Origin: Raillietiella orientalis
Lineage: Eukaryota
DNA length: 45,506 nt
Direction of reading: 5' to 3'
NCBI GenBank assembly: GCA_036172245.1
Contig: JAYWIR010000109.1
Location: 124,001-169,506 of the forward strand
In this document: positions 17,481 through 45,506 of the stretch, piece by piece
How the letters are laid out: every line of letters starts with the position of its first letter
How positions within the stretch are numbered: position 1 is the stretch's first letter
Program-made: the position numbers and the translations under genes
Notes under the pieces: generated by a model
Seen by the model: the letters and a program-made list of their open reading frames with translations, nothing else
The model's database searches: none
Told to the model about the DNA's origin: nothing

Positions 17481-17864
17481 TAAGTGCACTGTGCAATTAA
17501 ATACGAAGCGGACAGGTGCCAACGCCAAGCATGAACCATAGAGGTTTCTGTTAGGATAATTCCTCCGCTGTGTCCTGTTTCATTTCTCTGAAGAGCGAGC
17601 TGGTGGTCACACTTTGGACCCCAGTGGCTCCTCTGAGGGGACATCCATTCTAACGCATCGTTGAAGCGCAAGGATGAGTTATGCATGCTTTACATCACAG
17701 ACCGAAATCACTCGTCGGGATGCAAAGTGAGTGTAACCAACCGCCGGGATCGTTCACTGCCGCAGATCACTGCTCTGCAAACATTACACAGTGTGAATTT
17801 GCAACCATGATTTCTTAAAGTTTGTTTGTTTTGGAACAGAACCTCCACTTTTCAAGAAAAGTCT

Positions 17865-17933
17865 GCAATGAATAGGTGCATTCATTGCACTCGTTGTGTT
17901 AGGTTTTTGTCTGATGTTGCGGGCACAAACGAA
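17865..17933 (+). pseudogene. nuoG: Fragment of bacterial NADH-quinone oxidoreductase subunit G (Wolbachia/Rickettsiales-like nuclear transfer)
   Basis: Translates AMNRCIHCTRCVRFLSDVAGTNE, the conserved 4Fe-4S motif RCIxCTRCVRF of NuoG. Confidence 0.8.
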
Positions 17934-17992
17934 CGTTGCCAATTTAGTACTCAATGAAAAAGCTTCTTTTGCTACTGTGCAATTGAGGTTTT

Positions 17993-18290
17993 CTGCCTCA
18001 TCTATATATGAAACGATAGAGTGATCTATTTTTGAAATTTCATCGATGAATCGCTGCATATCTTCTTGATTGAGCTCTTGATATGACTTTTTTAGAGTTA
18101 TTTTTAGTTTTTTTAACCTATACCAAATTAAACTTATTCCAAATCCTAGACCTTGCTTCATTTCTGCTAGCATATGATCTGGGTGTTTTTTTACGTATTC
18201 TCTGAGTACTTTTGGATCTATCTTTCGAATAAAACTTCCATTTTTTCCTGCCTTTAGGCTTTCACCATTTGCTTTCTTTTTCAGCCATCT
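17993..18290 (-). mobile_element. IS630-family transposase fragment, Wolbachia-like
   Basis: [51 protein letters not shown]...WYRLKKLKITLKK...YIDEA covers the HTH region through the first catalytic Asp (IDE). AT-rich and truncated at both ends. Confidence 0.85.
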
Positions 18291-18371
18291 TGCCATACAG
18301 ATTTTATTGCAAGGTTTCAGCGCATGCTTGGGAAAGATGTTTTTTACCCAATTGGGTTTGATGATAATGGG
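18291..18371 (+). pseudogene. valS: Fragment of valyl-tRNA synthetase (Rickettsiales type)
   Basis: Translates [27 protein letters not shown], the segment just after the HIGH motif of ValRS. Confidence 0.85.
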
Positions 18372-25489: not shown

Positions 25490-27206
25490 GTAGCTCCTCG
25501 AGCGCAATTCTTTTTTTTCGTCTTTGTGTGGTCTTGTGTACGTCCATTCGGATGTCCTTGGCCCTAACACAAGAGAGGATGGATTTGGAGACTGCAGCCT
25601 GCACTGGAGTTTCCACCCCGGATGCTCGGCCGCCTCTAATGATTCTGTCTCGCCACCCGAAAGAAGCTGCACCTCCGTCGTCAAGGCAGCAGCAGCAAAC
25701 AGGGCACCGCCTGACGAAGCCGAGTTACAGTCATATACAGCCCATGGCTACAAGCCTGCTCTCTGCTATCAGTGAGTGCTATCTCCGAGAGGGTCGGAGA
25801 AAATCTTTCGGATGAGCTCGAACACGTCGGGGACTGGCAGGACGTCTCTTGGCTGTCATGCCTGTGAAAATGCCTGGACACTATGAGGTGCACTGTAAAG
25901 AGGCAGTCCTAGTCCAACGCCTTAGCACCTCGCTGAACATACACGGGAACGGGGTCGTCCCGTCGGTCATGGACCAGTCGATCGTGGTCCGATTGTCCGC
26001 CTTCCAGATTGTCCGATCGCGTGCTCGTCGGTGCACTCAGTGCATTCGCCACGGTGCACGCGCTATGGAGAGCAGACAATCCAAGTAAAAGGATAGCATC
26101 TCCACAGCAGACTTGCCATGGAGCATGTCACCATAGTGGATCGGAGGCTAATGGTGGGCGATGCGATCGTCCACCTTAAGTTTGCCGGTCAACGACCGGC
26201 TTGCGGCATTTGCTGTGCAGAGGGCCACCGTCCATGGAAGTACCCTTCTCTCAAGTGCCGCTACTGCAAACTGCTCGGTCACTCCATTAAGTAGTGCACC
26301 GAGATGAAGCGAAAGCGTCAGGCGAGGAATCGCCACCAATTGTCCCCATCCACCCCGAAAACTTCCCCCGCTGTACCCCGGGAGAAATCGGGCGCGAATG
26401 ATGCGGCTTCATCGAGTGGCGGCCACGCAAAAAGGGCGTGGTTGCTCCAGGGAAGCCACCATCTCAGGCAGCCGCGCAAGCGGGGAAGATGCCACGTCGC
26501 TCTGGGGGCAAATCGTCCCTCTCGAAGCAGCCTAAGAGTGTACCCACGCACTCAACGGAGGCTGCTGGGCCATCTACGTCCGTTTCCGCGCCCAGCAGAA
26601 AACAGGAAACCGTGAGCGGACACCCTCGGAACTGCCCCTGGACGGACGTGCCCCCTAAGTCCGAGGAGAGCACGCCGTCCACGGCGAAAACACTGGCTGC
26701 GAAGGCTGCAGTAGCGCATCGCGCGACGGCGGCAATGAACGCCGTTTTGCCCGCACCAGCGAAGGAGCAGGTGCAGCGGGCAACGATGACGGAACCGTCT
26801 CGTCGCGAGCGCGAAATCTGAGCCGGCAGCTCCGGACAAACAGGCGAGGCAGGCGTCGGCCTCCCAGGATGGCGTTCCCGACGACGGCGACGCGGGCTGG
26901 ACTCGGGTAGCCAGGACACCCACAAAGGGGAAGAAGGTAGACCCTTCGCAATTCCCCATACTGAAGGTAAATGGAAGGAAGAAGCGAAACGCCGAAGAAG
27001 CTGCATATCCAGGTACGCACTACGGCTGCGTGCTCTGTTCTATCGCTTCCCGCGAGGGCGGCTGCAGAAGCCAAAGCGCCGGGGGCTGCGTTGGCGACTG
27101 CGGCGACCCCCGCGCGGGCAGGGCAAGCCTTCACCTGCCGGTACACCAAGAGACAGGCAAAACGCTAGTCTCGCACTTGGCATTCGGACTCCGAAGTAAA
27201 GTCCGA
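25490..27206 (+). mobile_element. Tx1-like LINE 5' portion (degenerate ORF1), + strand
   Basis: Frameshifted pieces match the ORF1 at 35.9-37.5 kb: QSYTAHGYKPALCY vs QAYVASGYIPALRY; VQRLSTSLNIHGNGVVPSVMD vs VQRLLRSPLTIGGKEVLPSVMD; SAFATVHALWR vs AKFATVHALWR; knuckles CGICCAEGH and CRYCKLLGH at ~26200-26295. Candidate ATG at 25552. Confidence 0.8.
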
Positions 27207-27656
27207 TTTTCACCCGAATTTCGCCGGGGCGTTTATTGAAAAATAAACTTTTACAAACACGTGCAGTGGCTGGACCAATGCTCCAGCCACGCACGAAGAA
27301 ACAGCCTGACGGGTATCCGGATCTCAGACCGGTACGGTCCACCACGGCAGCAGGGGGAAGGGGAAAAAACAAAACAAAAAAAAAGAAAAGAAGTGGGAGG
27401 GTACAGGAAGGGATCACTGTTGCTGCTGGGGCCGTTGCATCCTTTGCAGGATGCCGGCAAGCTCTTTCTGTATTCGAGGATCCCGGTGGGGCCATCTCGA
27501 CGTCCTCAGGAATTGGGCGGCGCCTAGGAAGGCACCCTTGTCGCGTGGTCCTCCCGTAGCGGTGCATCATGCGGCGAAGATCCCGCGAAGGCAGCACAAG
27601 GCTGCTATCGAGGCCGCTGGCCGAAGGGCGTCGGCAACGAAGAGGGCTTTTAGTTG
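27207..27656 (-). mobile_element. Tx1-like LINE copy A (ORF2 C-terminus and 3'UTR only)
   Basis: LFVADALRPAASIAALCCLRGI matches copy B LFVQDALRPAAALAALCCVRGI. T-rich tract and AATAAA terminal motif at 27207-27237. Confidence 0.85.
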
Positions 27657-30600
27657 CCACCCGGTCACGCCGGGGCGTTTATTAAAAATTCTCTATAATT
27701 GTGGTATATGGCCCCACTACGGCCAACACAACTGGACCTGCCGGGTTGCCGATACGCAGATCGGCGCGACTCACCTCGGCAGCGGAAGGGGGTGGGGGGA
27801 AAAACAAAAAGAAAAATAAAACATAAAAAACAAAAAGATTTTGGTGGGCGGGGAAGGAATCACGGTCCACTGCGAGGAGAATCCATCCTTTCCAGGATGC
27901 CCTCCAGGTCCGTCCGTATTCTTCCCAGATGGGGCCATCTGGTCGCAATCCGCAGGTAGCGGACTGCAAGTTCGACGGCATCCCTTTCGTGGCTCGGTCT
28001 TCCGACGTCACTCCAGCACGTCACAATCCCACGGACGCAGCAAAGTGCAGCCAGGGCAGCGGCTGGTCGCAGGGCATCCTGCACGAACAGAAGCCGAAAA
28101 ACGTCTCTGGGCTGGCTGCCCTCCTGGATGCGTAGGGAGGCACGAAGACGTTCCCACAGGGGCCGGAGGGCAGCACAATCAATAAGGAGGTGGGGGAGGG
28201 TTTCCCGCTCTCCGCACCTGATGCACTCGGGATTCACTCGACCCCTGGTCCAGTGGTGGCGGCGTGCGTTGCAGGGGAGGCCCCAATGCAACAACAGAAG
28301 TGCCGACTCCTGCCACTTCAGGGGGAGGATCCTCGATCCAATCAATACTGGGGGCCACTTCAGTTCATCCGTCTGGATGTCGAGCAGCTCGCCCCATCTC
28401 AGGAGTCCACGCGGAAGGACACTTCGGGTCGTGGCGTCAACCAGCTGCCCCGTGGTCCAGCCGCTCATTTGCTTCTCTTTGCCTGCGATACGGCAGGAGA
28501 CTTGCCACCTAGGCTTGCGGCTGCTGGAGAGCGCCCTCCTCAGGTAGGGCAACGCCGTAGCTAGGGGGGTTGTCTCCGCCCACATGCTTCTCGCGGGACA
28601 CTGGAGTATCTTCCGGAGAGTGCAGCGGGAATAGGCGCCGCGTCGCAGGCAGTTCCACATCTCTGAGTTCTGCTCTTTGATCTTCGCCCACGTGCCAGCG
28701 GTCTCCTCCAGCCATGCGGAGGAGTTGGCGGGGCTGCATTCCATCCAGCCGTTTTCCTTTGCCAGGGTTGCCATGCGTCCCAGGAGGAGTCCGCATCTCT
28801 TGATCTTCGAGCCGCGGCACAGAAGATGAGACGCGAGACCCTCCGTTCCGGATACACGGCTGGCAAGGAGTCGGGCCGGAACGCACCATGGGGTGCTCCA
28901 TAACTTCGCTGCGATGGCCAGGGTGCGCCATCGCAGCTGGATTTCTACTCTCTCCACCGTCAAGAGGCCCAGACCGCCATCCCGACGTGGAGCACACAAG
29001 TCCTTCAACTGGACTCGGGGCTCCCTCTTCCCCAAAGGGCAATCCTCAGGAGGTCCTTCGTCCTTTTTTTCATGTCTCTGGGGACGGGGCAAACAAAAAG
29101 CAGGGGGCGGAGGATGGGAGCCGCAAAGGAGTTCCACACCGCGGCCCGTTCCGGAAGCAGGAACTTGTCTTCCAAGAACGGGCCGATCGCCGTTTCCACT
29201 TTTTGGAGGCAGCCGGACCACGCATCCGAAGGGGAGTAATCCCCCAACGGCACACCGAGGTACTTCAAGCACCTCGCCGAGGTGATCCCCAAACGGACCC
29301 AGTCCTGCTGCCCAGCCCACGTCGCACCGACTGGCATCACGGACGACTTAGCCCTGTTCATCGTAAGTCCGGTTCCCCGATTCAGCAGGTCGAAGAACTT
29401 CTCGACCGCCGCAGCCGGGGTGGACATAGGGAGCAGCAGCAGAAGGACGTCCGCGTATGCTGAAACGGCCGGCGTACCGGCACATTCGTGCGGCAGGTGC
29501 GCCAGAGTTCCCCTGTACGCTCTCAGTACCAACTCGAAGGAGGTACTGAAGAGCAAGGGGCTCAGGCTGTCTCCCTGCCGTATCCCACGCCCCATCGTCA
29601 TGCCGTGCACGGTCTGCCCGCTGAAAGTATGAGAAATTAACGCGTCGCGCCAACTGGAGCGGAGATAGGCCAATAATGAGGCCGGGGAGCCCAAGCGTTC
29701 CAAAAGCTCCAGCAGGATATTCTGGTCGACGCTGTCGAGTGCTTTACGCAAGTCCACAGCGACCGCAAGTGCTCCCTCCCCCATCCGACCATCCGTCGCA
29801 TGACTGACGGACTCACCGGAATTCCCGGTGCGCATCAAGCCCCTTTCGTGTTGGAGCTCTAGCCAGGTGGAAGCGTGGAACAGGTTCGCCTCCATGCTTC
29901 GCCCCGGAACAGCATACGTCTGTTCCGGGCTGATGAAGGCGTTTGCAACCCGTACCAGGCTCTCAGCCCAAACCTTAGCTATCAACCTGGCATCCGCATT
30001 CTCTATTGTGACGGGACGCCAGTTCACGCTCCTCAGGTCTCCTCCCTTAGGGAGGAGCCGCACCTTTGCCGAGCGAAAGGAGGCGGTAACGCCACCTGTC
30101 TCGCGTATCAGCAAGATGAGTTGATGTACCAGGGGGGTAAGCTCAGCCGCGATAGTTTGATAAAACTCCGCATGCAGGCCGTCCTCCCCTGGAGCCTCGC
30201 GCATGTTGAGCTTTCCGATGGCCGTGGGGATCTCGTCCATCGTGAAAGGCTCGTCGAGGGACTTTCCTCCCGGATCGCTGGAGCGCCTTCCGGAAGCAGG
30301 AGTCGTGAGACATCCCGCTCGGGAGATCTTGCGTATAGGGAGGTGTAGAATCTCCGCAGCAGGCCGTGGATTTGGACGGGTGCCGAGTGCCCCTGGCCCT
30401 GATCATCCAGCAAGCTGGCCGATCCGAACTTCCAGGCTTGCCTCTCGGCTCCCGCTTTGTACTCCGGCAGCCCGCGGATGTCGGGGGTCCTGGCGTAACG
30501 TCTGGCGTGCAGGTAGGCTCGTTCTTTACGGATTCCGTTCCCAAATCCCGCAGGTAGGCGGTTGAAAGGGAACTGGTCGCAGAACTCCTGGTCCGACCGA

Positions 30601-30995
30601 TTGAAGCGGTCCCAGTCCTGGTGTGTCCGCAGCCTGAAGCTCCGTTTGAACGTGCTGTGATGTTCCGCCGCGTCCTGGAGCTTCAGCCCGTCCCCTGGGA
30701 GACGCAATGCTGACGAGGGGGGCCCTGACGGGCGGATGAACCTCGAGCAGGATAGGGCGATGGTCGGAGAGCTCGCACGGTAACTAGCCGCGCCTGCTCA
30801 CGCGAGGGCATAGGTGTTCGTTTAGGAACACGTGGTCGATGCTGTCCTGCACGCCTGGTTCACTGGCCAACAAATTACAGGTGTGCACCGCCGTGCACAC
30901 CTCGTTGATCAGGTCCCATTCGTGATTCGGCCCTCTGGCTTCAGGCGAACGTTAAAGTCGCCTGCAACCGAAGTGGAGTCCGAGTGCAAACCTAA
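27657..30995 (-). mobile_element. Tx1-like LINE copy B, 5'-truncated within the APE endonuclease; frameshifted ORF2
   Basis: AGDFN (~30960), IDHVF and LSDHR endonuclease motifs; APGEDGL, NWRPVT, GIRQGDSLSPLLF, YADV (mutated YADD) and KYLG RT motifs; CIRCGERETLPHLLIDC zinc motif; terminal motif at 27658-27683. Confidence 0.92.
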
Positions 30996-31182
30996 AGAGC
31001 GCGTATCCCGAGGTAGCCCTGGAGCGCGACGGGCTACAGCGCAAGTACGAGTCTGTTGGCGGAAGCGATTCCGGCCCCTGCTCGGAGCCCGAAGCGATGA
31101 TTTTCGGCTCGAAGGACTCAGCTGGGTGCGATGCGACGGTGATCGATAGCTAGTCCGCTTCCCAATCCGCAGTGCTGCCAGT

Positions 31183-31425
31183 TTACTGCTCGCCGGACGC
31201 GTTTGTACATATTTCCCTTAGCTGATTCAAACTAGAGTGGACACCCTCGGATATGTTCTCCATATGTTCGTCTGTTGGTTTGTATTGGGTGATTAGAGCA
31301 TCTAGATTGGCCTTATGCTTTGGGGTCGTTATCCATCCCTTATAGTCGTTTATACTGTTAAAGGCTGGTCCCCATATAATCTCAGATATTCCTTTCCTAC
31401 AGGTGGCACAGTTTTGTACAGTTTT
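31183..31425 (-). other. Non-LINE insert carrying an 80-codon open frame (C-terminal fragment of an unknown protein)
   Basis: Manual translation KTVQNCATCRKGISEIIWGPAFNSINDYKGWITTPKHKANLDALITQYKPTDEHMENISEGVHSSLNQLREICTNASGEQ*. More AT-rich than the flanking LINEs and absent from other copies. Confidence 0.45.
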
Positions 31426-34020
31426 TCACCCGGGTGAGGCAGGGCTTTTATTATTAAAACTTTTTACAAGAAAAAATTCCATACTAAAGTCCTTTTTCTT
31501 TTCACTGTTTTGAATGTTTTTTTCAGCAGTAACACGTTCCGCTGTCTTGGGGCACTTGTCATTACCGACCCGTAGACCGATAAGGTCTTCCACATTGGCG
31601 CAGGGGCGGGAAAAAAAAGAAAAAAAAAAAAAAGAAAAACGCCTTGGGGGGGGGGGCAGTTTTATGGGAGGGGGGCAAGGGTGGGGATAACGGTACGCCG
31701 TGAGGAGGCCTCTGCACCCTGCTTCGGATGCGAACAAGTGCCGGTAAATGTTATCGAAGTCGGCGCCAACGGCATGGCTTCTCCAAAGAGATGGCTACCC
31801 AGTGAATGGCATTCCGACTGGTCCGGCCTCTCCGTGACTCGGTCCACTTGTCCAGGATTCCGCGTATGCAACAGAGCACTGCTACACACCCGGAGGCTAG
31901 CAAGGTGTCCCGCATCAGGAGTCGAAAAATGTTCTTGGGTACGCCCTCCGGAATGTTGAGGATCGACGAGTGTCGGTCCCACATATCGCGGAGGGCAACA
32001 CACTTTGGAATCAAGTGGGGGAAGGTCTGCCTTTCCCCTCACTCTGTGCAGTTGGCATCCACATTCTCCGATGTCCAGTGAGACAGGCGTGCTCTGCTTA
32101 AAAGTCCCCAATGGAACAGAAGCAACGCCGTCTCCTGCCACTGCAGGGGAAGGGTGCCGTTGTCCCAAGACGCTGGGGGCCACTTCACCTCCTCCGGAGC
32201 TACGTTGAGCAGCGCGCCCCAGCGTACAAGTCCACTCGGCGAGACAGTCGGGGTACTAGCGTCCGCTAGTTCCCGGGATGTCCACGCCTTCATCCGTTTT
32301 TTCCTGCCTCCGATGAGGCAGGACACTTCCCACGATGCCTCCTGTTGACTGTTCCTGGCTTCTATGAGGGAGGGCAGCACGGGGGCAAGGGGGGTGAAGG
32401 AAGCCCACAGAAGTTCCCGTGGGTTGGAAACGATCTCCTGCAGTGGCTGGCCAGCGCACGTGCCTCGACGGAGGCAGAAGTCCACATCGCTGGAACCGTT
32501 GACTTTTGCCCACGGGGAAACGGACTCCTGTAGCCAGGTAGTCCAGTCCGCGGGGTTGCAGGAGATCCACGGATTCTCCCTCTCCAGGGCAACCAGATCG
32601 GTAAATGGTTAAGACTAAGGTCGTTGGCTACCAGGATTGGGGTCAATCCGTAGCAGCCGGTTGCCCTGTGGGCGAGGAGTCTTGCGGGAGCACACTAAGG
32701 TGCTGGCCAATTCTTTGCCACAAGGGCAAGTTTTCGAAATTGCAGCTGTCGCACCATGTGCTCCAACGTGAGGAGACCAAGTCCACCGTCCCTGCTTAGA
32801 GCGCACAAGTCTTTAAGCCGGACGCGGAACCTCCCCTTTCCCCAAAGGGCGATGCGCAGGAGGTCCTTTGTGTTTTTTTCTATTCCCATGGGGATGGGGC
32901 AAACAAAAAGTAGGAGGCGAAGGATGGGAGCCGCAAACGCGTTCCATACCGCGGCCCGTTCCGGCAAGAGGAACTTGCCCTCCAGGAACGGGACGATCAC
33001 CAACTGCACTTTCTGGAGACGGCCTGACCAGGCTTCTGACGGGCAGAAGTTTCCCAGCGGAACGCCAAGGTACTTCAGATATGCGCCCGTCGGGATCCCC
33101 AGGCGGATCCAGTCAGGCCGTCCTTCCCACGTCGCTCCAACTGCCACCATCGACGATTTTGCCCTTTTGACTCGTAGCCCTGTCCCACGGCTTAGCAGGT
33201 CGAAGAAATATTCGACTGCCGTTGCCGGGGCGGACATTGGGAGCAGGAGCAGCAGATCGTCGGTATATGCGGACACGGCAGGCGTGCCGGGGCACGAGCT
33301 TGGCAAGGCAGCCAAAGTCATCCTGTAAGCTCTCAGCACCAACTCGAAGTAAGTACTGAAGAGCAAAGGACTGAGGCTATCTCCCTGTCGAATCCCGTGG
33401 CGCACCGGGAGGCCGTACACGTGTTGTCCTCTGAAAAAGATGTTCGTCAGCACGGCGCGCCAGCAGGAGCACAAGTACGCCGTTAAGGTCGATGGGAAGT
33501 CCATGCGATGCAGAAGCTCCAGAAGCTCCTGGTCCACGCAGTCGAACGCTTTATGGAGATCGACTGCGATCGCTAGGGCACTATTGCCCGCCCGGCTGTC
33601 CCCACCCTGACCAGCGGTCACCCTTAAATTGGGGTTGCAGGGATCCCTTACGTTCTTTAACTTCGCCTTGCACATAAAACCATGTGCTGGCGAAGAACAG
33701 GTTAGCCTCCATACTTCGCCCGGGAACAGCATAAGTCTGCTCCTGGCTAATTACGGATTCGGCTACCTGTCCGAGCCGCGCGGCCCACAGTTTCGCTACC
33801 AACTTGAGTCCGTGTTCACGACCGTGACCCGACGCCACTTCAACTCACTCCTTCCTAAGGAAGGTCTCCTCCCTTAGGAAGGAGCCTCATCCTTGCTGAC
33901 CGGAACGAGGCGGGAACATCGCCTTCTTCCCGGATCAAATGTATCAACCTATGCATCAAGGGGGTGATCTCTGCCGCGAAGCATTGAAAAAACTCCGCGG
34001 GCATCCCTTCCCAGGCTTCC
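31422..34020 (-). mobile_element. Tx1-like LINE copy C (RT through 3' end), degenerate
   Basis: GMPAEFF, LLPKGGDL, AVDLHKAFD, GIRQGDSLSPLLF, AYTDDL and KYLG motifs; C-terminal CTE*GERQTFPHL; terminal motif at 31422-31452. Confidence 0.92.
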
Positions 34021-34087
34021 AAATGACAAGTGTTTTTACTTTTTCTTTTTTTTTTTCTTTTTGTTTTTCCCCCAACCCTATCCGTTG

Positions 34088-35059
34088 ATCGTTGTCCATG
34101 GTCCAAGGACATAGCCTGGAAGCATCGTAATTGGAGATATCACGTACATTCCATCTATCTTGCGACATCTTGTCATAGTTTGGCTCCCAGTTGGAAAATA
34201 CAAGGATGTGGGGCGGGTCAAAATACTTGATGCTTCCTCGGTATTTGGAAGCGAAAATGATACCATTTTTCAAGGTTTCTATAAATCCATACTGGACTAT
34301 TTCCTGGTTATCTCTTGTAAGATCAATGACAATGATTCGTTCACCGTTGTATATGTGGGCTGCATCAGCTTTTTTGCAGCTGTGCATGTATATGCCGTTC
34401 CTTTTAAGGTAAAGAAACTTGGCGAAGGTGGTTTTGCCGTTTACTCCTATTGGGTCGAAATACCAGTATATTTTTCGGTCGTCTGGTGGTGAGCGTATCA
34501 ATTTTAGTATGTCCATTTGCCAGCTGCGTAATTGCAAGTTGGCCATGGGGTTAGGATGTTTTCTGCTTCGTGTTAAACGGAAGCATTCTTTTACGAAGTT
34601 AATGTTCTTGCTATAGAATTTAGTGTGGTTTCTCAATATGTCGAGTTCTGATGCTCCGTTTTCAATTAGTTGGAGTATCTAGGTTGAAATAAAGAGATTG
34701 GTCATTTGAAGTTTGCTTACCATGTCTTGGTAGTCGTTTGTTTCTTTTTCTTGTTGTATCATGCCAAATGTCCAGGCTTCGTGGTCCTCTTTTGTGCAGA
34801 ACCGTAGGTTGCTCTGTGGCGAACCGCGTGCTTTTTCTAGGTGGCACTTCTGGAAGGTTGTGTGCTTTAAAGCAGGAAATGTGCGTGGTTCCTTGAGTTG
34901 CACATATCCCTGAAGGTGCGGTGTTCCAGTGCTTGCTTTCTCTTTGCCAATGATTGCGAAGGTGCAATTTCTTCTGCACCAGTCCTTTATTTGTTGAAGT
35001 TCTTCATCGAGGTAGTTGCACAACGTGAAGCACCAGTATAAGAAGTGGCCGTATGGCAT
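34088..35059 (-). CDS. rep: Endogenous CRESS-DNA virus Rep (HUH endonuclease plus SF3 helicase), with putative 42-nt intron at 34679-34720
   Basis: Motif I CFTLCNY, motif II PHLQG, motif III FCTKE (Tyr replaced by Phe), Walker A GVNGKTT, Walker B IVIDLTR, motif C VFSN, Arg finger SQDRW. The two listed ORFs are in the same frame, separated by one TAG. Confidence 0.95.
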
Positions 35060-35116
35060 GTTGGTGATTGGTAATTCTGTCGAGGTGAGACTGGTTTATG
35101 CCTCATGCTGTGGTGG

Positions 35117-35124
35117 TTTATATA
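35117..35124 (-). promoter_or_regulatory. Putative TATA box for rep
   Basis: TATATAAA on the minus strand about 60 nt upstream of the rep ATG (35059), between the origin and the gene. Confidence 0.55.
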
Positions 35125-35141
35125 CTGGCAAACTGCGCAGT

Positions 35142-35177
35142 ATTTGCAATCTGGTTAGTATTACCCAGATTGCAAAT
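35142..35177 (+). promoter_or_regulatory. Rolling-circle replication origin stem-loop with nonanucleotide TAGTATTAC
   Basis: ATTTGCAATCTGG-tTAGTATTAC-CCAGATTGCAAAT: perfect 13-bp stem, nonamer at 35156-35164 on the strand opposite the rep coding strand. Confidence 0.95.
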
Positions 35178-35375
35178 GTCTTCGTCGGCAAAACCTTGGA
35201 AATTCTGTCGAGGTGAGACTGGTTTATGCCTCATGCTGTGGTGGTGTGGGGTGTCAAGTCGGTCTGCGCACCGACCACCTGACAGTTCCATAGAATTATT
35301 GGCTGCAGCAGGTCCTTGTACCGCAAACACTGTAAGTTTCTTTTAAATAAACGCCCCGGCTTGAACGGTTGAAAA

Positions 35376-37623
35376 CGTACGAGGAAAGCGACACCGCACG
35401 TACGTGCGACGCCGCACCTATAATGTAGCGTTCCGCCCGCGCGCCGTTCGATTTCGGCAGCCTGCTCGTCGGAGATGCTGTGAATCTCCTGCAGAAGCGT
35501 CAAGTCTAAGGCGCGCAGAGCGTTAGCCACTAGTCGCCTCTTCTCGTCGAGCTGGAGCCCTTTGACGTTCCAGCACCCTTTGACGTTGCCACACGACGAG
35601 AAGACGCGATTGCCCTCATCACGGCTGGGAAAGCGAGGCCGTGGTGGTCGTCTAAGCCGGCGAGCGGGCAGTAACCAGTACGACGGGCTGGAGGGCGCGG
35701 TCGCCACTGGCCTGCACCGTGCTGGCGTAATCGAGTGCTCCTCCCCGGGTGCAAAACCTGTGGGTTCCGGGGTGAGCACTCGCCGTTCCGCGGCGAGTGT
35801 GTCACGCCTCAGGGCTTCAGCCCTGCGGGCGTTCGCTCCGGCGCGAGTAACTCGTCGTTCAGCGGCGTTATCGGACTCCTTTACGGAGTCTGATGCTCGC
35901 GCGATCGACGTGCGTTTGCATCCGTCCGATCGCACCGGAATCGTCTTCTCGGCGGTCACAGAGGCGTACTTGCAATTGTTGACGGCGCTGGCTTTTTCCT
36001 GGGCAGAAGAACCCTCCGCGCGTGTTCGTATTCTCGTGACTGGTTTTTGCTTTGGAAGAGCTCAGGGATGAAGGCTGCGAAGTTTTTTTTGGAGATTTTT
36101 CTTTCCTCCTCTCCACAAACTTCCATTCGCCTTCACGATTTTCGGAGGCTTCCGCGTCAGAAGTTACGGAAACCTCCGGGATTTTCGCTGCGGTATCTGG
36201 AGGCGTTGCTTTCGCTACGCCTTTAAAAGGCGCCAACGGAGTCACCTTGGCAGTCGAGAGATTGCTCCCCTCCTGCCGAGTCGGCGATGGGGCGACGGCA
36301 TGCAGCGTGCTCTTCCGCTGCTTTTTACGCTTTCGTAGCCATCGCAGAGGGCCCTGCGTTGCATTGGGCCTCTGGGAAACTCGGAAGAGACATCGGAATG
36401 GCACAGGAAGTGCTCGTACTGTTGCGATCTTCCTGCTTTCCTACTTTGTGTCCAGGGGTTTTGGGATATTTCCTGGTTGCTGGCTCGGAAAGGTCCCGGC
36501 GAGTTCGGCAGCCAGGGCGGGCTCGGCACGCTTCGAGCCCTCGCATCCCTTTTTAATTTCCTTCCCCGCCGTGATTTCTCCCTTTCGAGGCGTTGCGGGC
36601 GGGGACGCCTGTTGTTTAGCCGCGTATTACTTGGCTCTTTTGCCAAGACTCCGCAGACACTGTTGTTTCTTGGGGGCAGCGGCCTTTCTTGCGTTGGTCT
36701 CTTGAACGCGACGAACTTACGCTGCTGCCCTTTTTTTTGCAAGTACCGGGCACTTTTTTATTTCGTGCCCGGTTTCTTTGCAGTAGCGGCATTTCGGGGT
36801 GGGACATTCCTTCATTCGGTGTCCCTCCTTGCCGCACTGCTCGCATGCGCGAGTGTGGCCTATGAACCACAGGTGAACGACCGTGCCGTTCACCTGCAGC
36901 TGCTCAGGCTCAACACGCCTGTTCGCGACGGTGATCTGCACGGAGACTTGTCCGATGTGGACAGAGGGGAAATCCTTTAGAGGATTTGGTCTCCTCCACA
37001 GAGCGTGCACGGTGGCGAACTTCGCTAGCACGCTGACGACATCGCTGTCGGAGATTTCCGGCTCGATGTCGCACAATTGAACAACAAAAGAGGCGTCCAT
37101 CACGGAGGGCAGGACTTCCTTGCCACCGATGGTCAGCGGACTACGGAGAAGGCGCTGCACAAATGCCGCGTTCTTGCACCGTATCTTCGTGTATTCCATC
37201 CTGCCTGCAGGCATGATGGCAAGTTCCTTCGAACGCCGATCCGGACGAGCTCATCGTTGAGCTCATGCGCGGTCCTCCCGTTAAGGGGACAACTGACCTT
37301 ATAACGGAGTGCGGGAATGTAGCCGGATGCCACATAGGCCTGCGACTCCGCATCGCAGGGTCCTGCTCCCTGGGAGGTGACGGCGGCGTAGCTCCTCACC
37401 GAAGGCGAGGAAACCGTCACGGAGGATGCGGCCGCTTCCATTCCAATTGAATTGGATTCAACGGCTTGCTCCTCCACACCATTCTCAGAACTGGACATGC
37501 TGCACAACGCTGCTTGGTTGACTTGGCAGAAACACACAAGTGCGAGCGAAAACGCAGGCACAAATATGCTCAATCGCGGACGGGGTGAGAAGGGAAAACA
37601 CGTCTGTACTGTGGGAGCGCAGA
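35376..37623 (-). mobile_element. Tx1-like LINE 5' portion: 5'UTR, frameshifted ORF1 (ATG 37498) and start of the ORF2 endonuclease (ATG 35619)
   Basis: ORF1 has RSYAAV and two CCHC knuckles (CEQCGKEGHRMKEC, CRYCKETGHEIKKC). ORF2 begins with APE motifs WNVKGL, LLQEIH and GVAFL, then breaks at 35376. Confidence 0.9.
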
Positions 37624-39757
37624 TTTCTCACCCGGTCACGCAGGGGCGTTTATTTCATATAACATAAACAAAAACAATTATATAAAATAATCCAGTTGGG
37701 AACCCTGCTCCCAACCGACGACTGAACAAGGATCAAGAGTAGATTGCTGGCACTGAGGCCAGAATAACACAGAACGGTGTGGGGAACTGGGAACACAAAC
37801 AAACAAATACAAAAGAAAAAGAAATCAATGGGGACGCCATGACAAGGGACTTTGGGATTGCTCTGGTTCGCACTGGGATAAAAGTAATCCCACCGGCAGT
37901 TTAGCAGAGCGAGCGGGGAAGAGGTATGGGTGGGCTACAGTTCAGAGTGATCACCGGATTACGCCGTTCTTGAAAGTCTGTAAACCGGCGATGGATGCCG
38001 GTGATGTCCTCTTTGACCTCTTCACGAAGATGAGGCCACATAGCAGCCTTTTCCATGGATTCTGCTGCAAACCGGTGAGCCTCCCTTCGCTGCGCCGACA
38101 ACTCAAGGGCGTAGCGGGCCTTCACGATGTAGCGAATGCAGCACATGGTTGCGACAATCGCGCCTACCGAAAGTCCATTCCTGCTGAAGAATCGTCGCAG
38201 CACATCAATGGCAGTGCCACCCTGCGGCAGGATGGCTGAAATCAACCTTCGCCACAGTTCACGGAGGTCACCAGCAAGAGGTGCGTAAAAGACTCGATCT
38301 CTCCGCACCTCAAACAGTTTGGCAGAGCAGCTCCCCCGGAAACGATGCTTCGTTGCCTATTACAGTGGAAGCCCCAGTGTAAAAAGAGTAGCACATCTTG
38401 TTTCCACTTTAAGGGGAACACTGAGCTGTCCAAACAAACGGGGGGAACCACCAGCTCTTCGGGGGTTACACTTAAATGTTCACTCCATCGAAGCAGGCCC
38501 TTCGCCCGATTACGAGGAGTGGCAGTTTCCACCAGCTCCTTTGTCGTCCAGCCGCCGAGGAGCATACAGACTCCCGCTATTGTGCAGAACTCCCATTTCG
38601 CCGGTAGGCAACTGTCGTCGCTTGCCCTGAGGGCAGACAGCGCTGCGGCGAGTGGTGTGGCGGCCAGACGATCCGTCTTCTTGTCCTGCATGACTTCGTC
38701 CATTGGATGACTGAGGAGAAGTCGCAGGCGTCGAAGATCTTCCGGGCGCGTTCCTTCGGAAGCTGCCCACGATGAAAAAAATTCCTGCCGCCATGCATTA
38801 ATGTTCATGGGCGGCAGGAGATCCAACATTGGGCTTCCAGCAGTGAGGACAGCTGCCTCAGCGGGAAGCCAAACCCCATTCTGGTGTGCGGAAAGTGGGG
38901 CAGCAACGAAAGCAGTCCCTCGCTTCCTGTGCAGCGCCTTAGTATAAGGCGTGTGGGTAAGCACCACGGCGTACACCACAGCCTGGCACAGAGCCGCAGC
39001 ATTCGAAACTGCACCTGCAGCTCGACGCTGTTTAAGTCGAGGATGCCCGAGCCTGCATCCTGACGCGGCGCCACTAAGTCTTTAAGTCTTTCGCGAGATC
39101 TTGCAGCGCCCCACAACGTTTTGCGTAGGGGGCGCTGCGCCCAGACTTTGAATTCCTGGTGGGGTGGCCAAACAGAAAACAGGGGGCGGAGGAGGGGGGC
39201 AACGAAGGTGTTCCAGATGATGGCCGGTTCCGGCAAGACGAATTCGCCTCCTGAGAACGGGCCAAGTGCACGCTCTGCCTTCCGAAGACAGCCCGACCAC
39301 GCTTCTGAGATGCAGAAGTCTCCCAACGGCACGCCAAGGTACCTCAGGTACCTGTTCGTGGGGATCCCCAGGCGGATCCTGTCGGACTGCCCCTCCGACA
39401 TCGCTCCCACCGCAACAACCATGCACTTGCTCCTGTTGACGCTCACGCCCGCACCGCGGCGGATCAACTCAAAGAAATTTTCAAGCGACGCCGCCGGGGT
39501 GGACATGGACAATAGGAGAAGCAGGTCGTCGGCATGGGCTGCCAAGGCCGGCGTACCTGGACAGGAGCTCGGCAGGTTGGCTAGCGTCAGCCTGTAAGCC
39601 TCCAGCACCAATTCGAAATAGCTGCTAAAGAGCGGCGGGCTTAAGCTATTGTCCTGCCTAATTCCTCGCCGTACCGGCACGCCGTATACGCGACAGCCAC
39701 AAAACAATGGATGTAATCGCGTGGCGCCAGTAGGAGCGCAAGTACGGCAACAGGGAT
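37624..39757 (-). mobile_element. Tx1-like LINE copy D (divergent subfamily; RT C-terminal half through 3' end)
   Basis: GIRQDNSLSPPLF, AHADDL, RYLG and CLRCGEIESFTHLLL motifs; terminal motif at 37624-37654. Confidence 0.9.
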
Positions 39758-39779
39758 GCCGTACTTGCGCTTGCCGTAC

Positions 39780-40745
39780 GAGGGTATTACACATTTTAGT
39801 GCATTATTCATTGGGAATTTTACATGGAGGTAATTATCTTGTGGGTAGAGAGAGGAAGACTAGTCATAGGAGGTGTACCATTGCGGGGGAGAGCTTTTTC
39901 TGTAGCAGACAACGGATTCTGTTTTGTTGAATTAATCATATGCAGGGGGTTACAAGTTATTAGGGGAGTTATTCTAGGGAGATTGACGGTGTTTGCGGGA
40001 AGCTGGACTTGGCCTGGGGCAGAAATCATTTGGGATGGGGAAACTGAGCTTGAACGAGAACGAAAACTGGAAATCTTCGCATTATGCAAGGGGATCTCTG
40101 AAGATGATCTTTTGGGATATAATGGTATTCCAGCAGGAGAGGTGTTTTTCAGGAAAACACATTCCCTTGTTGCAAGCTCTGCAAACGAGGAAGTGTTTTC
40201 GAAAGGATAAATTATGGCAGGAAAGAAAATGGTGTTTCAATTTTTCAATAGGATTCTCCTGAATGCTCGTATTAGTTAAGAATGAGCAAGTCGGGATTAA
40301 GCATTTAAAGCTAGAAGCAATGGGAAATTTAACCAGCAATAACTGATTTGTAGTTAATGCGAGGTCATCATTGCATATGGGTCGCAACTTTACAAAACTT
40401 AGAGGGGGTGTGGTCGATTGTGGACGAAGTGGTGAGGACGAATGAGACTTCGGAGCATGAAATGCAGATTTTGAGTAAGCATCACAAGATCGCAGGGAAC
40501 ATTGCCACAAATTTTGCTAATTGGGCTGGAAAACCTGACCTGTTTGACAGAACTAATTAAAGGTTTAGAACTAATTAAAGTAACATGCAAATCTTTGGAA
40601 TTTGGTACAAGTGAAGAATTGTCAGAGAGACCAGAGGGCGAACAAGATTGCAATATGTTCTCAGGAATGATTGCAGGAGGCGAATCCATAGGCGGATTAA
40701 TAGCAATGTCCGACATAGGCATAGGTGAGGAATCCCAACACATCC
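39780..40745 (-). mobile_element. AT-rich fragment resembling the N-terminal zinc-finger region of a NeSL/Utopia-type (RLE) retrotransposon
   Basis: LLVKFPIASSFKCLIPTC...LKHHFLSCH...CRACNKGMCFPEKHLSC gives FP-Cx4C...Hx4H...Cx2C...HxxC, flanked by Ser/Pro-rich sequence. Contains a frameshift and stops. Confidence 0.55.
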
Positions 40746-42768
40746 GTTAGCTCCCGAGTCGTACACGTCTTTAAAGGTTTTCTCCTGCCTCGCATGAGGC
40801 AGGACACTTCCCACGATGCCCGCTCGTTGCTGCTCCTAATGTTTTTCAGGGAGGACAGAACGGGGGCAAGGGGGGTGATAGAAGCCCACAGAAACTTCCG
40901 GGGCGTGTTGACAATCTCCTGCAGCGGCTGTCGAGCGTACGGTCCTCGACGTAGGCAGTTGTATTCCGGCTCGCTCGTGCCGTTGATCTTAGCCCACGCG
41001 GAGACTGACTCCTAAAGCCAGGCAGTGCAGTTCGCGGGGAGGCAGGAGATCCAGGTATTCTCTCTCATCAGGGCGACCATCTGGCGCAGATGGAAGCCCC
41101 AGGTGGTACTGAGGCTGCGCTGGTAGGTCACGAGGATCGAGGACAATCCTTCGCAGCCGGTCGCTTTTCTGGCGAGGACCCGTGCCGGATCGCACCATGG
41201 CGTCATCCATAAGCTAGCCGCGAGGGCTAGCTTTCGAAATGAAATTTGGTGTTGCATGCGCTCCATCGCAAGGAGGCCCAAACCACCGTCCCTGCGTGGA
41301 GCGCACAAGTCTTTCAATCGGACTCGCGACCTCGCTGTGCCCCAAAGGGCAGTCCTCTAGAGGGCTTTGGTCCATCTCTGTATGATGGGAGGGGCGGGGC
41401 AAACAAAAAGTAAGGGGCGAAGGAGGGAGGCCGCAAACGCGCTCCACGCCGCGGCCCGTTCATGCAGGAAGAACCTGCCGTCCTGGAACGGGCCGATCGC
41501 CGCCTGAGCCTTCTGAAGGCAGCCGGACCACGCTTCCGCAGATGAGTAATCCCCCAACGGCACACCAAGGTACTTGAACTACCTCACCGTGGGGATCCCC
41601 AAACGGACCCAGTCCTGCTGCCCTGCCCAAGCCGCTCCGACTGGCATTACGGACGACTTCGCCCTGTTCACCGTCAGTCCTGTTCCCCGACTCAGCAGGT
41701 CGAAGAAGTCCTCGACCGCCGAGGCCGGGGTGGACATAGGCAGCAGCAGCAGAAGGTCGTCCGCGTACGCCGAAACCGCTGGCGTACCGGGACAATCGCA
41801 CGGCAGGTGCGCCAGAGTCTCCCTGTACGCTCTCAGCACCAATTAGAAATGGGCGCTGAAGAGCAAGGGGCTGAGACTGTCTCCCTGCCGTATGCCGCGT
41901 CGCACCGGTACGCCGTACACGGTGGATCCACTGAAAAAGACATTAATAAGCGATTCGCGCCAGCTGGAGCGCAGGTAGGCCAGCAAAGAGGCCGGGAAGC
42001 CCAAGCGTTCCAGAAGCTATAAAAGGAGATTCTGGTCGACGCAATCGAACGCTTTACGCAGATCGACTGCGACCGCAAGGGCACCGGGCGCGGCTCTTCC
42101 ATGAAGGGCGTCCCCTCCCTGGTCAGAGGAGAATCCAGGATTCTCTTGACCTCCCTGGTCTTCGCTTTGTTGCAACTGCCACCATGTACTGGCGAGGAAC
42201 AGGTTGGCCTCCATGCTTCGTCCGGGAACAGCGTATGTCTGCTCCGGACTCACCACGGATTCCGCCACCCGTCCCAGTCGCTCAGCCCAAAGCTTGGCAA
42301 GCAACTTCGCATCCGCATTCACTACTCTGATGGGACGCCAGTTGCCTACGTTGCGATTGTCTCCTCCTTTCGGCAGGAGACGTATTCTAGCTGACCGGAA
42401 CGATTTGGGGACGTCCCCTTGTTCTCGGATCAGCATGCAAAGCCCATGCACCAGGGGGGCCAGCTCCGCCACGAAGCCTTGGTAGAACTCCGCGGGCAGA
42501 CCGTCTTCCCCTGGTACTTTCCTCTTTCTGAGCTTTCCGATGGCGGAGACGATCTCCGTCATCGAGAAAGGTTCCTCGAGTTGATGTGTCTGCTCCTCCT
42601 GTAGCGCGGGGGCGCCTTGCGGCAGCAAGCGCTGCGCCACGGCGCGCTCTGTTGTTCTACGCGCGTACAAGAAGGAGGAATAGTCAGGCAGGATGCGGTT
42701 TCTTTTCGCCGGAGCTGAGCATTCCTGGCCTTGGGCATCCAGCAAGCTGGCCGACCCGGATTGCCAGG
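40746..42768 (-). mobile_element. Tx1-like LINE internal ORF2 fragment (copy D2; lacks both ends)
   Basis: VPGEDGLPAEFY, NWRPI, AVDLRKAFDCVD and AYADDL motifs. Breaks off after WEVSCLM and has no terminal motif. Confidence 0.9.
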
Positions 42769-45230
42769 TTTTTCACCCGGGTAAGCCGGGGCTTTTATTA
42801 TTAAAATTTTTTGAGATTACAAAAAATTCCATAACAGAGTCTGAATTTTTTCACCAAAAATCTCATTTTCTGTTCAGGATGTCTAGAAGTTCATAAACGT
42901 TTAGTGGCACTTGTCCTTACCGACCCGGAGGCCGATAAGGTCCTTCACTGGCGCCGGGACGGGAAAAATAAAAGAAAACAAAAACAAAAAAAAGAAAAAC
43001 GTCTGGAGGGCAATGTTTTTGGGGAGGGAGGGAGGGGATCACGGTGCGCCGTGAGCAGGCCTTTGCATCCGGTTTCGGATGCGAACAAGTGCCGGCAAAT
43101 GTTTTTGAAGTCGGCGCCAACGGCACGCTTTCTCCAAGGAGATCGCTGCCCAGTGGATGGCATTCCGGCTGCTCCTTCCTCTCCTAGACGCGGTCCACTT
43201 CTCCAGGATACCGCGTATGCAGCAGAGCACTGATACGCTCCCGGAGGCTGGCAAGCCGTCTTGCGTCAGGAGGCGTCTGAATAAATTTTTCGGGTCACCC
43301 CCCGGAATGTTGAGGATCGACGAGAGTCTGTCCCACATTTCGCGGAGGGCAACACACTCCAGAATCAAGTGGGGGAAGGTCTCCCTTTCCCCGCACTCTG
43401 CACAACTAGCATCCACATTCTCCGATGTCCAGTGAGACAGGCGTGCTCTGCTTAAAAGTCCCCAATGGAACAGAAGCAACGCCGTCTCCTGCCACTGCAG
43501 GGGAAGGGTGCCGTTGTCCCAAGACGCTGGGGGCCACTTCATCTCCTCCGGAGCTACGTTGAGCAGCGCGCCCCAGCGTACAAGTCCACTCGGCGGGACA
43601 CTCGGGGTACTAGCGTCCGCTAGTTCCCTCGGCGTCCACGCCTTCATCCGTTTTTTCCTGCCTCCGATGAGGCAGGACACTTCCCACGATGCCTGTTGGT
43701 GGCTGTCCCGAACTTCCCTGAGGGAGGGCAGCACTGGGGCAAGGGGGGTGAAGGAAGCCCACAGAAGTTTCCGTGGGTTGGAAACGATCTCCTGGAGTGG
43801 CTGACCAGCGTGCCTCCCTCTGCGGAGGCAGGAGAAGTCCTCCTCGCTGGTGCCATTGATCTTCGCCCATGCGGAAACAGACTCCTGAAGCCAGGTAGTC
43901 CAGTCCGCTGGGATGCAGGAGATCCAAGGGTTGTCTCTCATCAGGGCAACCAAGTCCCGCAGCTGATAACCACAATGGTTCAGGCTGCGTTCGTTGGCTA
44001 CCAGGATTGAAGTCAATCCGAAGCAGCCGGTTGCCCTGTGAGCGGGCCGATCGCCAGCTCCACTTTTTGTAGATGGTCGGACCAGGCTTCTGCAGAGCAG
44101 AAGTCCCCCAACGGAACGCCAAGGTGCTTGACGTACCTGCCCGTGGGGATCTCCAAGCGGATCCAGTCCGACCGTCCGGCCCTCGTCGAGTCGGTGAGAA
44201 GCAACGACGACTTCGTCCTGTTTACCTGGAGGCCTGTCCCACGGTATAGCAACTCGAAGAAATCCTCGAGCGCCGATGCCGGGGTGGACCCGGGAAGCAG
44301 GAGCAGAAGATCGTCTGCATAGGCCGACACGGCAGGCGTGCCGGGACACGAGCTCGGCAGAGTTGCCAAAGTCTCCCTGTATGCTCTCAGCACCAACTCA
44401 AAGTAGATGCTGAAGAGCAGGGGGCTGAGACTGTCACCCTGCCGGATGCCACGACGAACCGGCACGCCGAACACGTGCCGGCCGCTGAAATTAATATTGA
44501 TGAACGCGAAGCGCCAGCAGGAGCGTAGGTAGGCCAGGAAGACGGCCGGAAATCCCAAGCGTTCGAGGAGCTCCAGAAGGAGCTCCTGGTCGCCGCAGTC
44601 GAAAGCTTTACGCAAATCGACTGCGACCGCAAGGGCTCCAGGCGCCGCTTCTTCTTCCCGGGTTCCCTCCCCCCTGTCAATGGAGAGTCCAGGACTTTCC
44701 CGACGTAGCTGCGCCTCGCGTTGTTGCAACTGCCAGAAGGTGCTGGCGAGGAACAGGTTGGCCTCCATGCTTCGTCCGGCATACGTAGTTTTAGCACCAG
44801 GGGGCCAGCTCTGCCGCGAAGCCTTGGTAGAACTCCGCGGGCAGACCGTCTTCCCCTGGTGCTTTCCTCTTTCTGAGCTTTCCGATGGCGGAGACGATCT
44901 CCGCCATCGAGAAAGGCTCCTCGAGTTGATGTGTCTGCTGCTCCTTTAGCGCGGGCGCGCCTTGCGGCAGCAAGCGCTGCGCCACGGCGCGCTCTGTTGT
45001 TCTACGCGCGTACAAGGAGGAGTAATAATCCCGCAGGATGCGGTTTCTTTTCGCCGGAGCTGAGCATTCCTGGCCTTGGGCGTCCAGCAAGCTGGCCGAC
45101 CCGGATTGCCAGGTCTGTCGCTCAGCCCCAGCTTTATACTCCGCCAGGCGTCGAACGTCGGGAGTCCTAGAGTAAAGACGGGCGTGGTGGTATGCCCGGT
45201 CGTTCCTCAGCCTTTCGCGGAAACCTGGAC
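42769..45230 (-). mobile_element. Tx1-like LINE copy E (5'-truncated; internal deletions near 44040 and 44790)
   Basis: APGEDGLPAEFY, GIRQGDSLSPLLF, AYADDL and CAECGERETFPHLILEC motifs; terminal motif at 42769-42799. Confidence 0.92.
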
Positions 45231-45506
45231 GGGAGTCCACTGCGGAACTGGTCTTGCGGGATTGAGAGAGGCACGAATCATGCCTACTGATATTCCGATG
45301 GCTGGAATTTCTTCATATAGATTGTGATTATTGACATCTATGATGCCATATAGACCGGGGGTGCCGTCTACAACCTGAGTTGGTAGAGGCGGGAAGGATG
45401 GGTACAAATGTTGCCCATTCTTGGTTGTCGTCGCGCCTAATCCAGTTAGATATAGGCGGATGGGTTCGACAAGGTTGAAGGACTGAACTCCCGCCTGCTG
45501 AACAGT
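45231..45506 (-). other. Endogenous partiti-like (dsRNA) virus capsid fragment, running off the window edge
   Basis: Frame is open from the window end: TVQQAGVQSFNLVEPIRLYLTGLGATTTKNGQHLYPSFPPLPTQVVDGTPGLYGIIDVNNHNLYEEIPAIGIS. PIxLYLxxxG, GQHLYP and HNLYEEIP are recalled from arthropod partiti-like capsids. Confidence 0.7.

Follow-up and report, generated by a model that had tools for sequence, protein, structure and literature searches.

A fragment of a partiti-like capsid gene directly joined to a 5'-truncated LINE in a genomic contig of Raillietiella orientalis

Partiti-Like Capsid Gene Fragment at the Window Edge

The analyzed window comprises 45,506 nucleotides of contig JAYWIR010000109.1 of Raillietiella orientalis. 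At its end, a fragment of a partiti-like capsid gene is located on the minus strand (45231–45506); it corresponds to approximately residues 160–250 of a protein of about 447 residues, is open, and runs off the end of the window. The minus-strand open reading frame that contains it has 99 codons between the window edge (45506) and the TGA at 45207–45209; of these, codons 2–92 (45231–45503) matched the capsid proteins of partiti-like viruses. The initial annotation, which had placed a stop-free partiti-like capsid frame of about 90 codons at the window edge, was thus borne out.

Comparison of the peptide with viral proteins, the check that the initial annotation had proposed, revealed a capsid match with identities of 71–80%. 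In the search of the protein collection, five of the 119 candidates reached E ≤ 0.01. The best match, P0002, bore the source label “putative capsid protein [Wuhan cricket virus 2]” (E 6.6e-38) and was the sole named protein among the five; the other four carried no name. Along residues 160–250 of the 447-residue Wuhan cricket virus 2 capsid, 65 of 91 positions were identical (71%, E 1e-47), and the comparison with residues 172–255 of P0004 (453 residues) showed 67 identical positions of 84 (80%). A profile built from the five capsids matched the fragment with an E value of 4.9e-51, while the runner-up piece in the whole window had an E value of 1.3. No Pfam family matched the capsid peptide, and a tblastn search with it against the phage collection returned no match.

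The capsid of Wuhan cricket virus 2 is encoded on the 1510-nt contig L001, which has a single ORF (98–1438). In addition, an RNA contig from a bat-metagenome run (X2) matched positions 45345–45425 at 89% identity over 81 nt and then continued as viral sequence and not as the window. The continuation of the X2 contig as virus and the single-ORF L001 contig suggest that the relatives of the fragment are real RNA viruses. Judging from these homologies, the peptide encoded at 45231–45506 is of viral origin and is related to capsids of partiti-like RNA viruses. The partiti-like grouping is based on a capsid tree: in the text of Flynn and Moreau (2019; PMC6540820), the capsid of Wuhan cricket virus 2 is placed in the Partiti-Picobirna capsid tree, where an endogenous viral element (EVE) of ants is its sister. 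The NCBI entry for this virus gives unclassified Riboviria only.

Over 273 bases aligned to segment L001 of Wuhan cricket virus 2, the nucleotide identity was 67%. The differences were distributed as 21, 16, and 53 among codon positions 1, 2, and 3, respectively, and the codon changes comprised 33 synonymous and 26 non-synonymous ones. This excess of third-position and synonymous changes indicates that most of the divergence arose under selection, while the sequence was still a virus. The open frame, together with divergence mostly at third positions, suggests that the fragment has decayed little since it was integrated. The parent virus of the fragment is a species other than Wuhan cricket virus 2, and the fragment is dead as a gene. 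The viral copy breaks off mid-gene, at codon 250 of 447, without poly(A), and the 3' 44% of the viral segment is absent from it; towards the 5' side, the viral part is visible for 276 bases, up to the window end. No further capsid piece was found in the 45.5 kb: of the 46 tblastn rows, the five significant ones all belonged to this locus, and the other 41 had E values of at least 0.015. A candidate second piece near 40337–40481 (E 8–9) was rejected as noise, since the tblastn and profile searches listed more than 100 rows like it.

Structure of the Virus–LINE Joint

The position of the joint can be read directly from the sequence. Viral homology ends at 45231 and LINE-protein homology starts at 45225 (both by tblastn), which leaves a joint zone on the minus strand (45226–45230) that BLAST assigns to neither. 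By eye, a LINE proline codon is recognizable at 45228–45226, and just 45229–45230 remain in the zone; the alignment to LINE copy B also puts the start of LINE homology at 45228. Thus, 2–5 bases are left between the virus and the LINE. Both parts lie on the minus strand, sense-to-sense, and are joined directly. The earlier statement that the capsid meets LINE ORF2 near 45230 on the same strand and with no spacer is therefore a fair description.

The last capsid codons in the viral frame read PQWTP, and the five viral capsids read PQWxP followed by P-[IL]-x-P. In the 12 bases past 45231, three matched the viral nucleotide sequence. On the other side of the joint, the LINE frame at 44791–45312 reads PGFRERLRNDRAY and aligns with PAGFGNGIRKERAY of copy B. 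In the same frame, the peptide PGFRERLRNDRAYHHARLY aligns with the copy B peptide PAGFGNGIRKERAYLHARRY, in agreement with the homology to copy B that had been noted for the LINE peptide at the joint. Copy B runs on upstream into its endonuclease region; the LINE at the joint is 5'-truncated between the endonuclease and the reverse transcriptase (RT).

The two frames are one base apart, with codons starting at 45233 and 45230 in the viral frame and at 45231 and 45228 in the LINE frame. Past the joint, the capsid frame reads seven unrelated codons (VQVSAKG) from LINE DNA and is then closed by the minus-strand TGA at 45207–45209, seven codons into the LINE. Since the viral and ORF2 frames differ, no capsid–ORF2 fusion protein is encoded. 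The initial annotation had described the capsid frame as running into ORF2; the abutment was confirmed, but the single shared frame was not.

No A run was present at 45200–45231, and no adapter-like or low-complexity filler was found at the change from virus to LINE. The GC content rises to 62% in the LINE piece, compared with 50% in the viral part. No D-family copy in the window spans the bases just upstream of the joint.

An identity of 10 bases between the viral part (45244–45253, minus strand) and LINE copy B (30578–30569) was observed at a near-equal distance from the joint. A match as long was reached anywhere in 311 of 5000 shuffles. This identity was rejected as a guide for a template switch: it did not fit a copy-choice geometry, being located upstream of the last viral base by 13 bases, with viral sequence (PQWTP) in between. 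For a fixed band of 11 offsets, the figure was 19 of 5000 shuffles, which is a chance estimate for any such band and not for the exact register.

Two public sequencing runs shared words with the analyzed stretch, in small shares; neither crosses the joint, and they are neutral with respect to it. Run X1 contained LINE DNA only, with one of 43 contigs at 99% identity or higher. Run X2 provided one viral RNA contig, the one at 45345–45425 described above.

Composite Organization of the LINE Pieces

Self-comparison and a four-copy alignment were used to determine the block structure of the LINE next to the virus. By this comparison, the element designated “LINE E” is a composite, and just 45228–44794 contacts the virus. 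This virus-touching piece, seg1 (44794–45228, minus strand, 435 bp), is 5'-truncated and corresponds to ORF2 between the endonuclease and the RT; its bases 45114–44794 are 95.3% identical to positions 42769–42448 of copy D (blastn, 322 nt).

The second piece, E proper (42772–44793, minus strand), is a 5'-truncated LINE that includes the RT core (RVT_1, E 2.8e-14), the C-terminal part, the 3' UTR, and a true LINE 3' end with a hairpin and a short A run, both conserved at the ends of copies C, B, A, and G. Positions 44787–44040 are approximately 76% like D, C, or B, and positions 44039–42772 are 83% like copy C overall, with values of 83–100% in the C-terminal part and the 3' UTR. Across two 100-column bins, E and C are 97–100% identical; this tract is likely the result of gene conversion. 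LINE sequence is skipped twice within “LINE E,” by about 215 bases at 44793/44787 and about 285 bases at 44040, with a few filler bases.

The start of copy D (42448–42771, minus strand) directly adjoins the tail of E proper and represents the second of two direct repeats, each of about 321 bp, on either side of E proper. The repeats are unusually long and have diverged by 4.7%. E proper is probably a 5'-truncated LINE that was inserted later into an element of the D family. The rest of copy D (40743–42447, minus strand) covers the RT and part of the C-terminal region and is 3'-truncated at about 40743. In the simplest account of this arrangement, the capsid-fused element would consist of seg1 and D (45228–44794 and 42447–40743), that is, about 2.1 kb of colinear ORF2. 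The LINE element that touches the virus has no 3' end of its own: D stops at about 40743 and is followed by 940 nt and then by LINE G.

The Same-Strand Array

All recognizable LINE and viral pieces between 27.2 kb and the window end lie on the minus strand. All 40 LINE-protein HSPs in 27447–45225 are on this strand, and the three plus-strand LINE HSPs among the total of 43 are located at 25849–26324, outside the array. Nine orientable pieces all point one way, for which we estimate a probability of 2^-8 if they are independent.

A near-complete Rep of a CRESS virus was also found on the minus strand (Viral_Rep, E 4.7e-15; the helicase match was weak), directly upstream of the 5'-truncated LINE copy C. 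LINE G is 5'-truncated and ends in a LINE tail, which abuts the apparent start of the 5' UTR of copy F with no spacer. The truncated copies differ in where they start: B starts within the endonuclease, seg1 ahead of the RT, C at the start of the RT, G within the RT, and A close to the C-terminus. Copies F and B were also considered as one LINE split by the block of Rep and C; this was rejected, as their endonuclease ends overlap by about 12–15 residues of unlike sequence. In copy F, matches to Exo_endo_phos (E 1e-5) and zf-CCHC (E 3.5e-7) were detected. A zf-RVT match of 22.9 bits in the window lay below the cut-off. With RT, APE endonuclease, and ORF1 domains predicted, the family is classified as an endonuclease-type (APE) non-LTR retrotransposon.

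On one side of the capsid fragment, the window carries host-type sequence. Besides the LINEs, it includes an IS630/Tc1-type transposase and a match to a kringle domain (E 2.5e-7) that scored 31.4 bits, the Pfam gathering score being 34.3. All seven frames of the interval U1 (40743–39803) gave nothing meaningful in Pfam, and one U1 frame had no usable match in the Atlas. A frame of the interval U3 (31420–31200) likewise gave nothing meaningful in Pfam, and its 80-residue frame found no match among 15 protein candidates. A full-library match, P0007 (E 1e-5), was treated as spurious, being a 56-residue tandem-repeat protein with seven matches at 32% over 25 residues.

Possible Origin of the Joint

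The presence of an RNA-virus capsid gene in DNA means that a host reverse transcriptase was needed. The initial annotation had argued the same, and its argument holds, as the peptide is viral and its relatives are RNA-virus capsids. The best reading of the joint, which we hold with moderate confidence, is template switching of the reverse transcriptase from LINE RNA onto viral plus-strand RNA. The LINE RT would have copied LINE RNA towards its 5' end and left this template at the ORF2 codons before PGF. Synthesis would then have continued on a partiti-like capsid segment (plus strand), beginning inside it near codon 250 of 447 (about nucleotide 847 of roughly 1.5 kb) and proceeding towards the viral 5' end. 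The expected product is a sense virus sequence followed by a sense 5'-truncated LINE, without poly(A) or spacer. Because the LINE that touches the virus lacks its own 3' end, we infer that the switch was part of a multi-part product. On the template-switch reading, either the product arose by several jumps with priming on a different LINE (G), or the element has lost its tail since then. The initial annotation had proposed a jump of the LINE RT to the viral plus strand. The sense abutment, the 5'-truncation, and the missing spacer speak for it, but a single jump from the element's own RNA is too simple for a composite “LINE E” and an element with no 3' end.

Features of LINE template-switch chimeras have been listed by Gogvadze et al. 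(2007; PMC2104539). Among those given in the text of that source, a 3' part represented by a 5'-truncated LINE, direct joining in the same orientation, and scattered LINE truncation points were all found here. The feature of a 5' part that is a full-length RNA copy was not found at the viral 3' side, where the copy breaks off at codon 250. The same list includes short direct repeats around the entire chimera, the 5' end of which lies off the window here.

Several observations count against a switch. Classical chimeras begin at the 3' end of the acceptor, and the viral copy begins internally. The LINE piece at the joint, having no 3' end, could not have primed alone. In addition, the joint lies 276 bases from the window end, possibly the contig end, with no independent reads across it, and its upstream continuation is off the window, where LINE ORF2 might resume. 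Finally, the two skips in “LINE E” and the tract of 97–100% identity between E and C make joining at the DNA level credible.

Such DNA-level joining is the strongest competitor, although we regard it as unlikely. An older capsid insert and LINE debris would have been brought together in a repeat island by deletion, end joining, or ectopic recombination. The two internal skips with filler bases (44793/44787 and 44040) are compatible with this history, as are the likely gene-conversion tract shared by E and C and the 3'-truncation of copy D, beyond which lie the 940 nt of interval U1. However, patching of this kind is expected to give random orientation, yet the nine pieces lie on one strand. 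A separate reverse-transcription event would still be required for the capsid DNA, and no second capsid piece is left in the window. The uniform orientation argues against random patching and leaves room for the other alternatives.

A second alternative, for which we see little room, is that a 5'-truncated LINE was inserted by target-primed reverse transcription into an older capsid insert, so that the joint is simply a LINE 5' junction. E proper itself, with its flanking repeat of about 321 bp, looks like an insertion of this type. However, the downstream half of the capsid would then be expected past the LINE 3' end, and none was found in the 45.5 kb, an argument that is weakened by the loss of that 3' end. 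Moreover, hitting a target of about 1.5 kb is improbable unless the site was favoured.

Misassembly, in which the last 276 bases would have been wrongly joined to the LINE, is slightly less probable still. The joint is near the window end, possibly the contig end, in highly repetitive DNA, and neither of the matching public runs spans it; yet a DNA assembly is not expected to contain an RNA virus that has no DNA copy, and the change from virus to LINE is clean within 2–5 bases. The least probable account is an insertion into a longer LINE, either of the viral fragment by itself or of another chimeric element, on either strand, of which it forms the end; the upstream ORF2 half of that LINE could then lie past the window end. 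Against this account, the viral piece ends mid-gene at 45231 with no A run or LINE tail, and so with no recognizable priming end, and nothing else of the array is on the other strand.

A broader scenario can be put forward as a speculation that we consider doubtful. The RT of one LINE family would have written the whole 18-kb array (27.2–45.5 kb) by repeated template jumps, landing both on the ends of foreign RNAs and inside them, and would thereby have archived the partiti-like capsid and the CRESS Rep. Such jumps might be the main route by which heritable viral inserts arise in this invertebrate, and the array might serve as a one-strand small-RNA memory locus.

Comparison With Known Systems

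Several components of the arrangement are already known from the published reports considered here: partiti-like capsid EVEs of arthropods (PMC6540820; PMC6580184), LINE chimeras with cellular RNAs, a proposal of switching between LTR elements and RNA viruses, and an enrichment of non-LTR elements near tick inserts. In invertebrates, the conversion of an RNA virus to heritable DNA has mostly been inferred from nearby transposons. In the openly accessible article texts considered here, we found no LINE/RNA-virus joint described at base level.

Known LINE template-switch chimeras include U6/L1 in mammals, the WEIRD-MGL “MINE” elements, and a tripartite chimera of Magnaporthe (PMC2104539; bioRxiv 10.1101/2025.02.02.635956). 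As described in the text of these sources, they resemble the present case in that a 5'-truncated LINE has a foreign RNA copy directly attached to its 5' side and oriented the same way, and multi-part products are known among them. They differ in that the partner is a cellular RNA, whereas here it is a segment of an RNA virus, and in that their copy begins at the 3' end of the acceptor, whereas here it begins inside it, at codon 250 of 447. In the accessible text of the LINE-1 recombination preprint (bioRxiv 10.1101/2025.02.02.635956), neither “virus” nor “viral” occurs.

The bornavirus- and filovirus-like elements of mammals are a second system. According to the text of Katzourakis and Gifford (2010; PMC2987831), they have poly-A tails and target-site duplications and are LINE-mediated, and no such hallmarks were apparent for insect inserts. 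As in these retrocopies, a gene of a non-retroviral RNA virus would have been copied to the germ line by a host non-LTR enzyme. Unlike them, the present copy has no poly(A), is not a complete transcript, shows no visible duplication, and is continued by a LINE body.

Copy-choice recombinants between LTR retrotransposons and RNA viruses have been discussed for the EVEs of Aedes by Whitfield et al. (bioRxiv 10.1101/127498), who cite Geuking et al. (2009). Template switching is proposed in both cases, and the virus and the retroelement lie on one strand. In the text of that preprint, the retroelement is of the LTR type and the association statistical, whereas in our case an endonuclease-type LINE is involved and the evidence is one joint at base level.

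A further comparison is offered by the published partiti-like EVEs of arthropods, which share with the present insert the virus group, the gene, an invertebrate host, and nearby non-LTR retrotransposons. The base-level virus–LINE joint sets it apart from them, since none was found in the text of those reports. The present case is one half-visible example, with one side of the joint in view. If the template-switch reading is true, a virus–LINE joint known to within a few bases would give direct evidence of the ability of a non-LTR RT to capture viral RNA by switching, including at an internal site. It would also fit the two-fold enrichment of non-LTR elements near tick inserts reported in the text of a 2019 paper (PMC6580184).

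Apparently Nested and Joined LINE Copies

LINE copy E proper, a 2.0-kb 5'-truncated element with a true LINE tail, lay between two direct repeats of approximately 321 bp (45114-44794 and 42769-42448, minus strand) that were 95.3% identical. The arrangement resembles that of a LINE inserted into another in the same orientation, although the target duplication would be unusually long. A comparison of LINE E (43426-43626) with LINE C (32072-32272), located 11 kb apart, revealed 97% and 100% identity in two consecutive 100-column bins, whereas the flanking bins were 86-90% identical. The high-identity tract is likely the result of gene conversion between the copies.

At 37600-37660 (minus strand), the tail of LINE G, consisting of a hairpin and a short A run, was directly followed by the apparent 5' UTR start of LINE F, the ORF1 ATG of which was located near position 37497; the junction would represent two LINEs joined end to end. 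Stretches at 39803-40743 and 31200-31420 were located directly upstream of the 5'-truncated LINEs G and B, respectively, and the latter contained an 80-codon open frame on the strand of the array, with a stop just before LINE B. Pfam and protein searches of the frames found no relatives for either stretch.

Outside the minus-strand array, positions 10290-10390 on the plus strand matched the second half of a kringle domain (E 2.5e-7; 31.4 bits, below the Pfam gathering score of 34.3 bits), which suggests an exon of a host gene. An IS630/Tc1-type transposase HTH (17784-18371, minus strand, E 3.5e-11) and, just beyond the array, a LINE ORF1 fragment (25849-26324, plus strand) were also identified.

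Virus-Derived Sequences

A 602 nt RNA contig from a bat-metagenome run matched positions 45345-45425 of the partiti-like capsid fragment at 89%, and its flanks resembled the Wuhan cricket virus 2 capsid; judging by these similarities, a close exogenous relative is apparently circulating.

A near-complete CRESS-DNA-virus Rep, with the endonuclease domain (PF02407, E 4.7e-15) followed by a helicase part, was located in the region 33956-35245 on the minus strand; it was preceded by an origin-like stem-loop and followed by about 40 A-rich bases and then by the 5'-truncated LINE C from about 34020. The stem-loop carried what we take to be the usual nonanucleotide in reverse-complement form and had a 46-nt direct repeat on both sides (35243-35197 and 35112-35068). 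The layout was the same as that of the capsid fragment joined to a 5'-truncated LINE; however, the origin-like stem-loop suggests a DNA-level or read-through template for the Rep insert.
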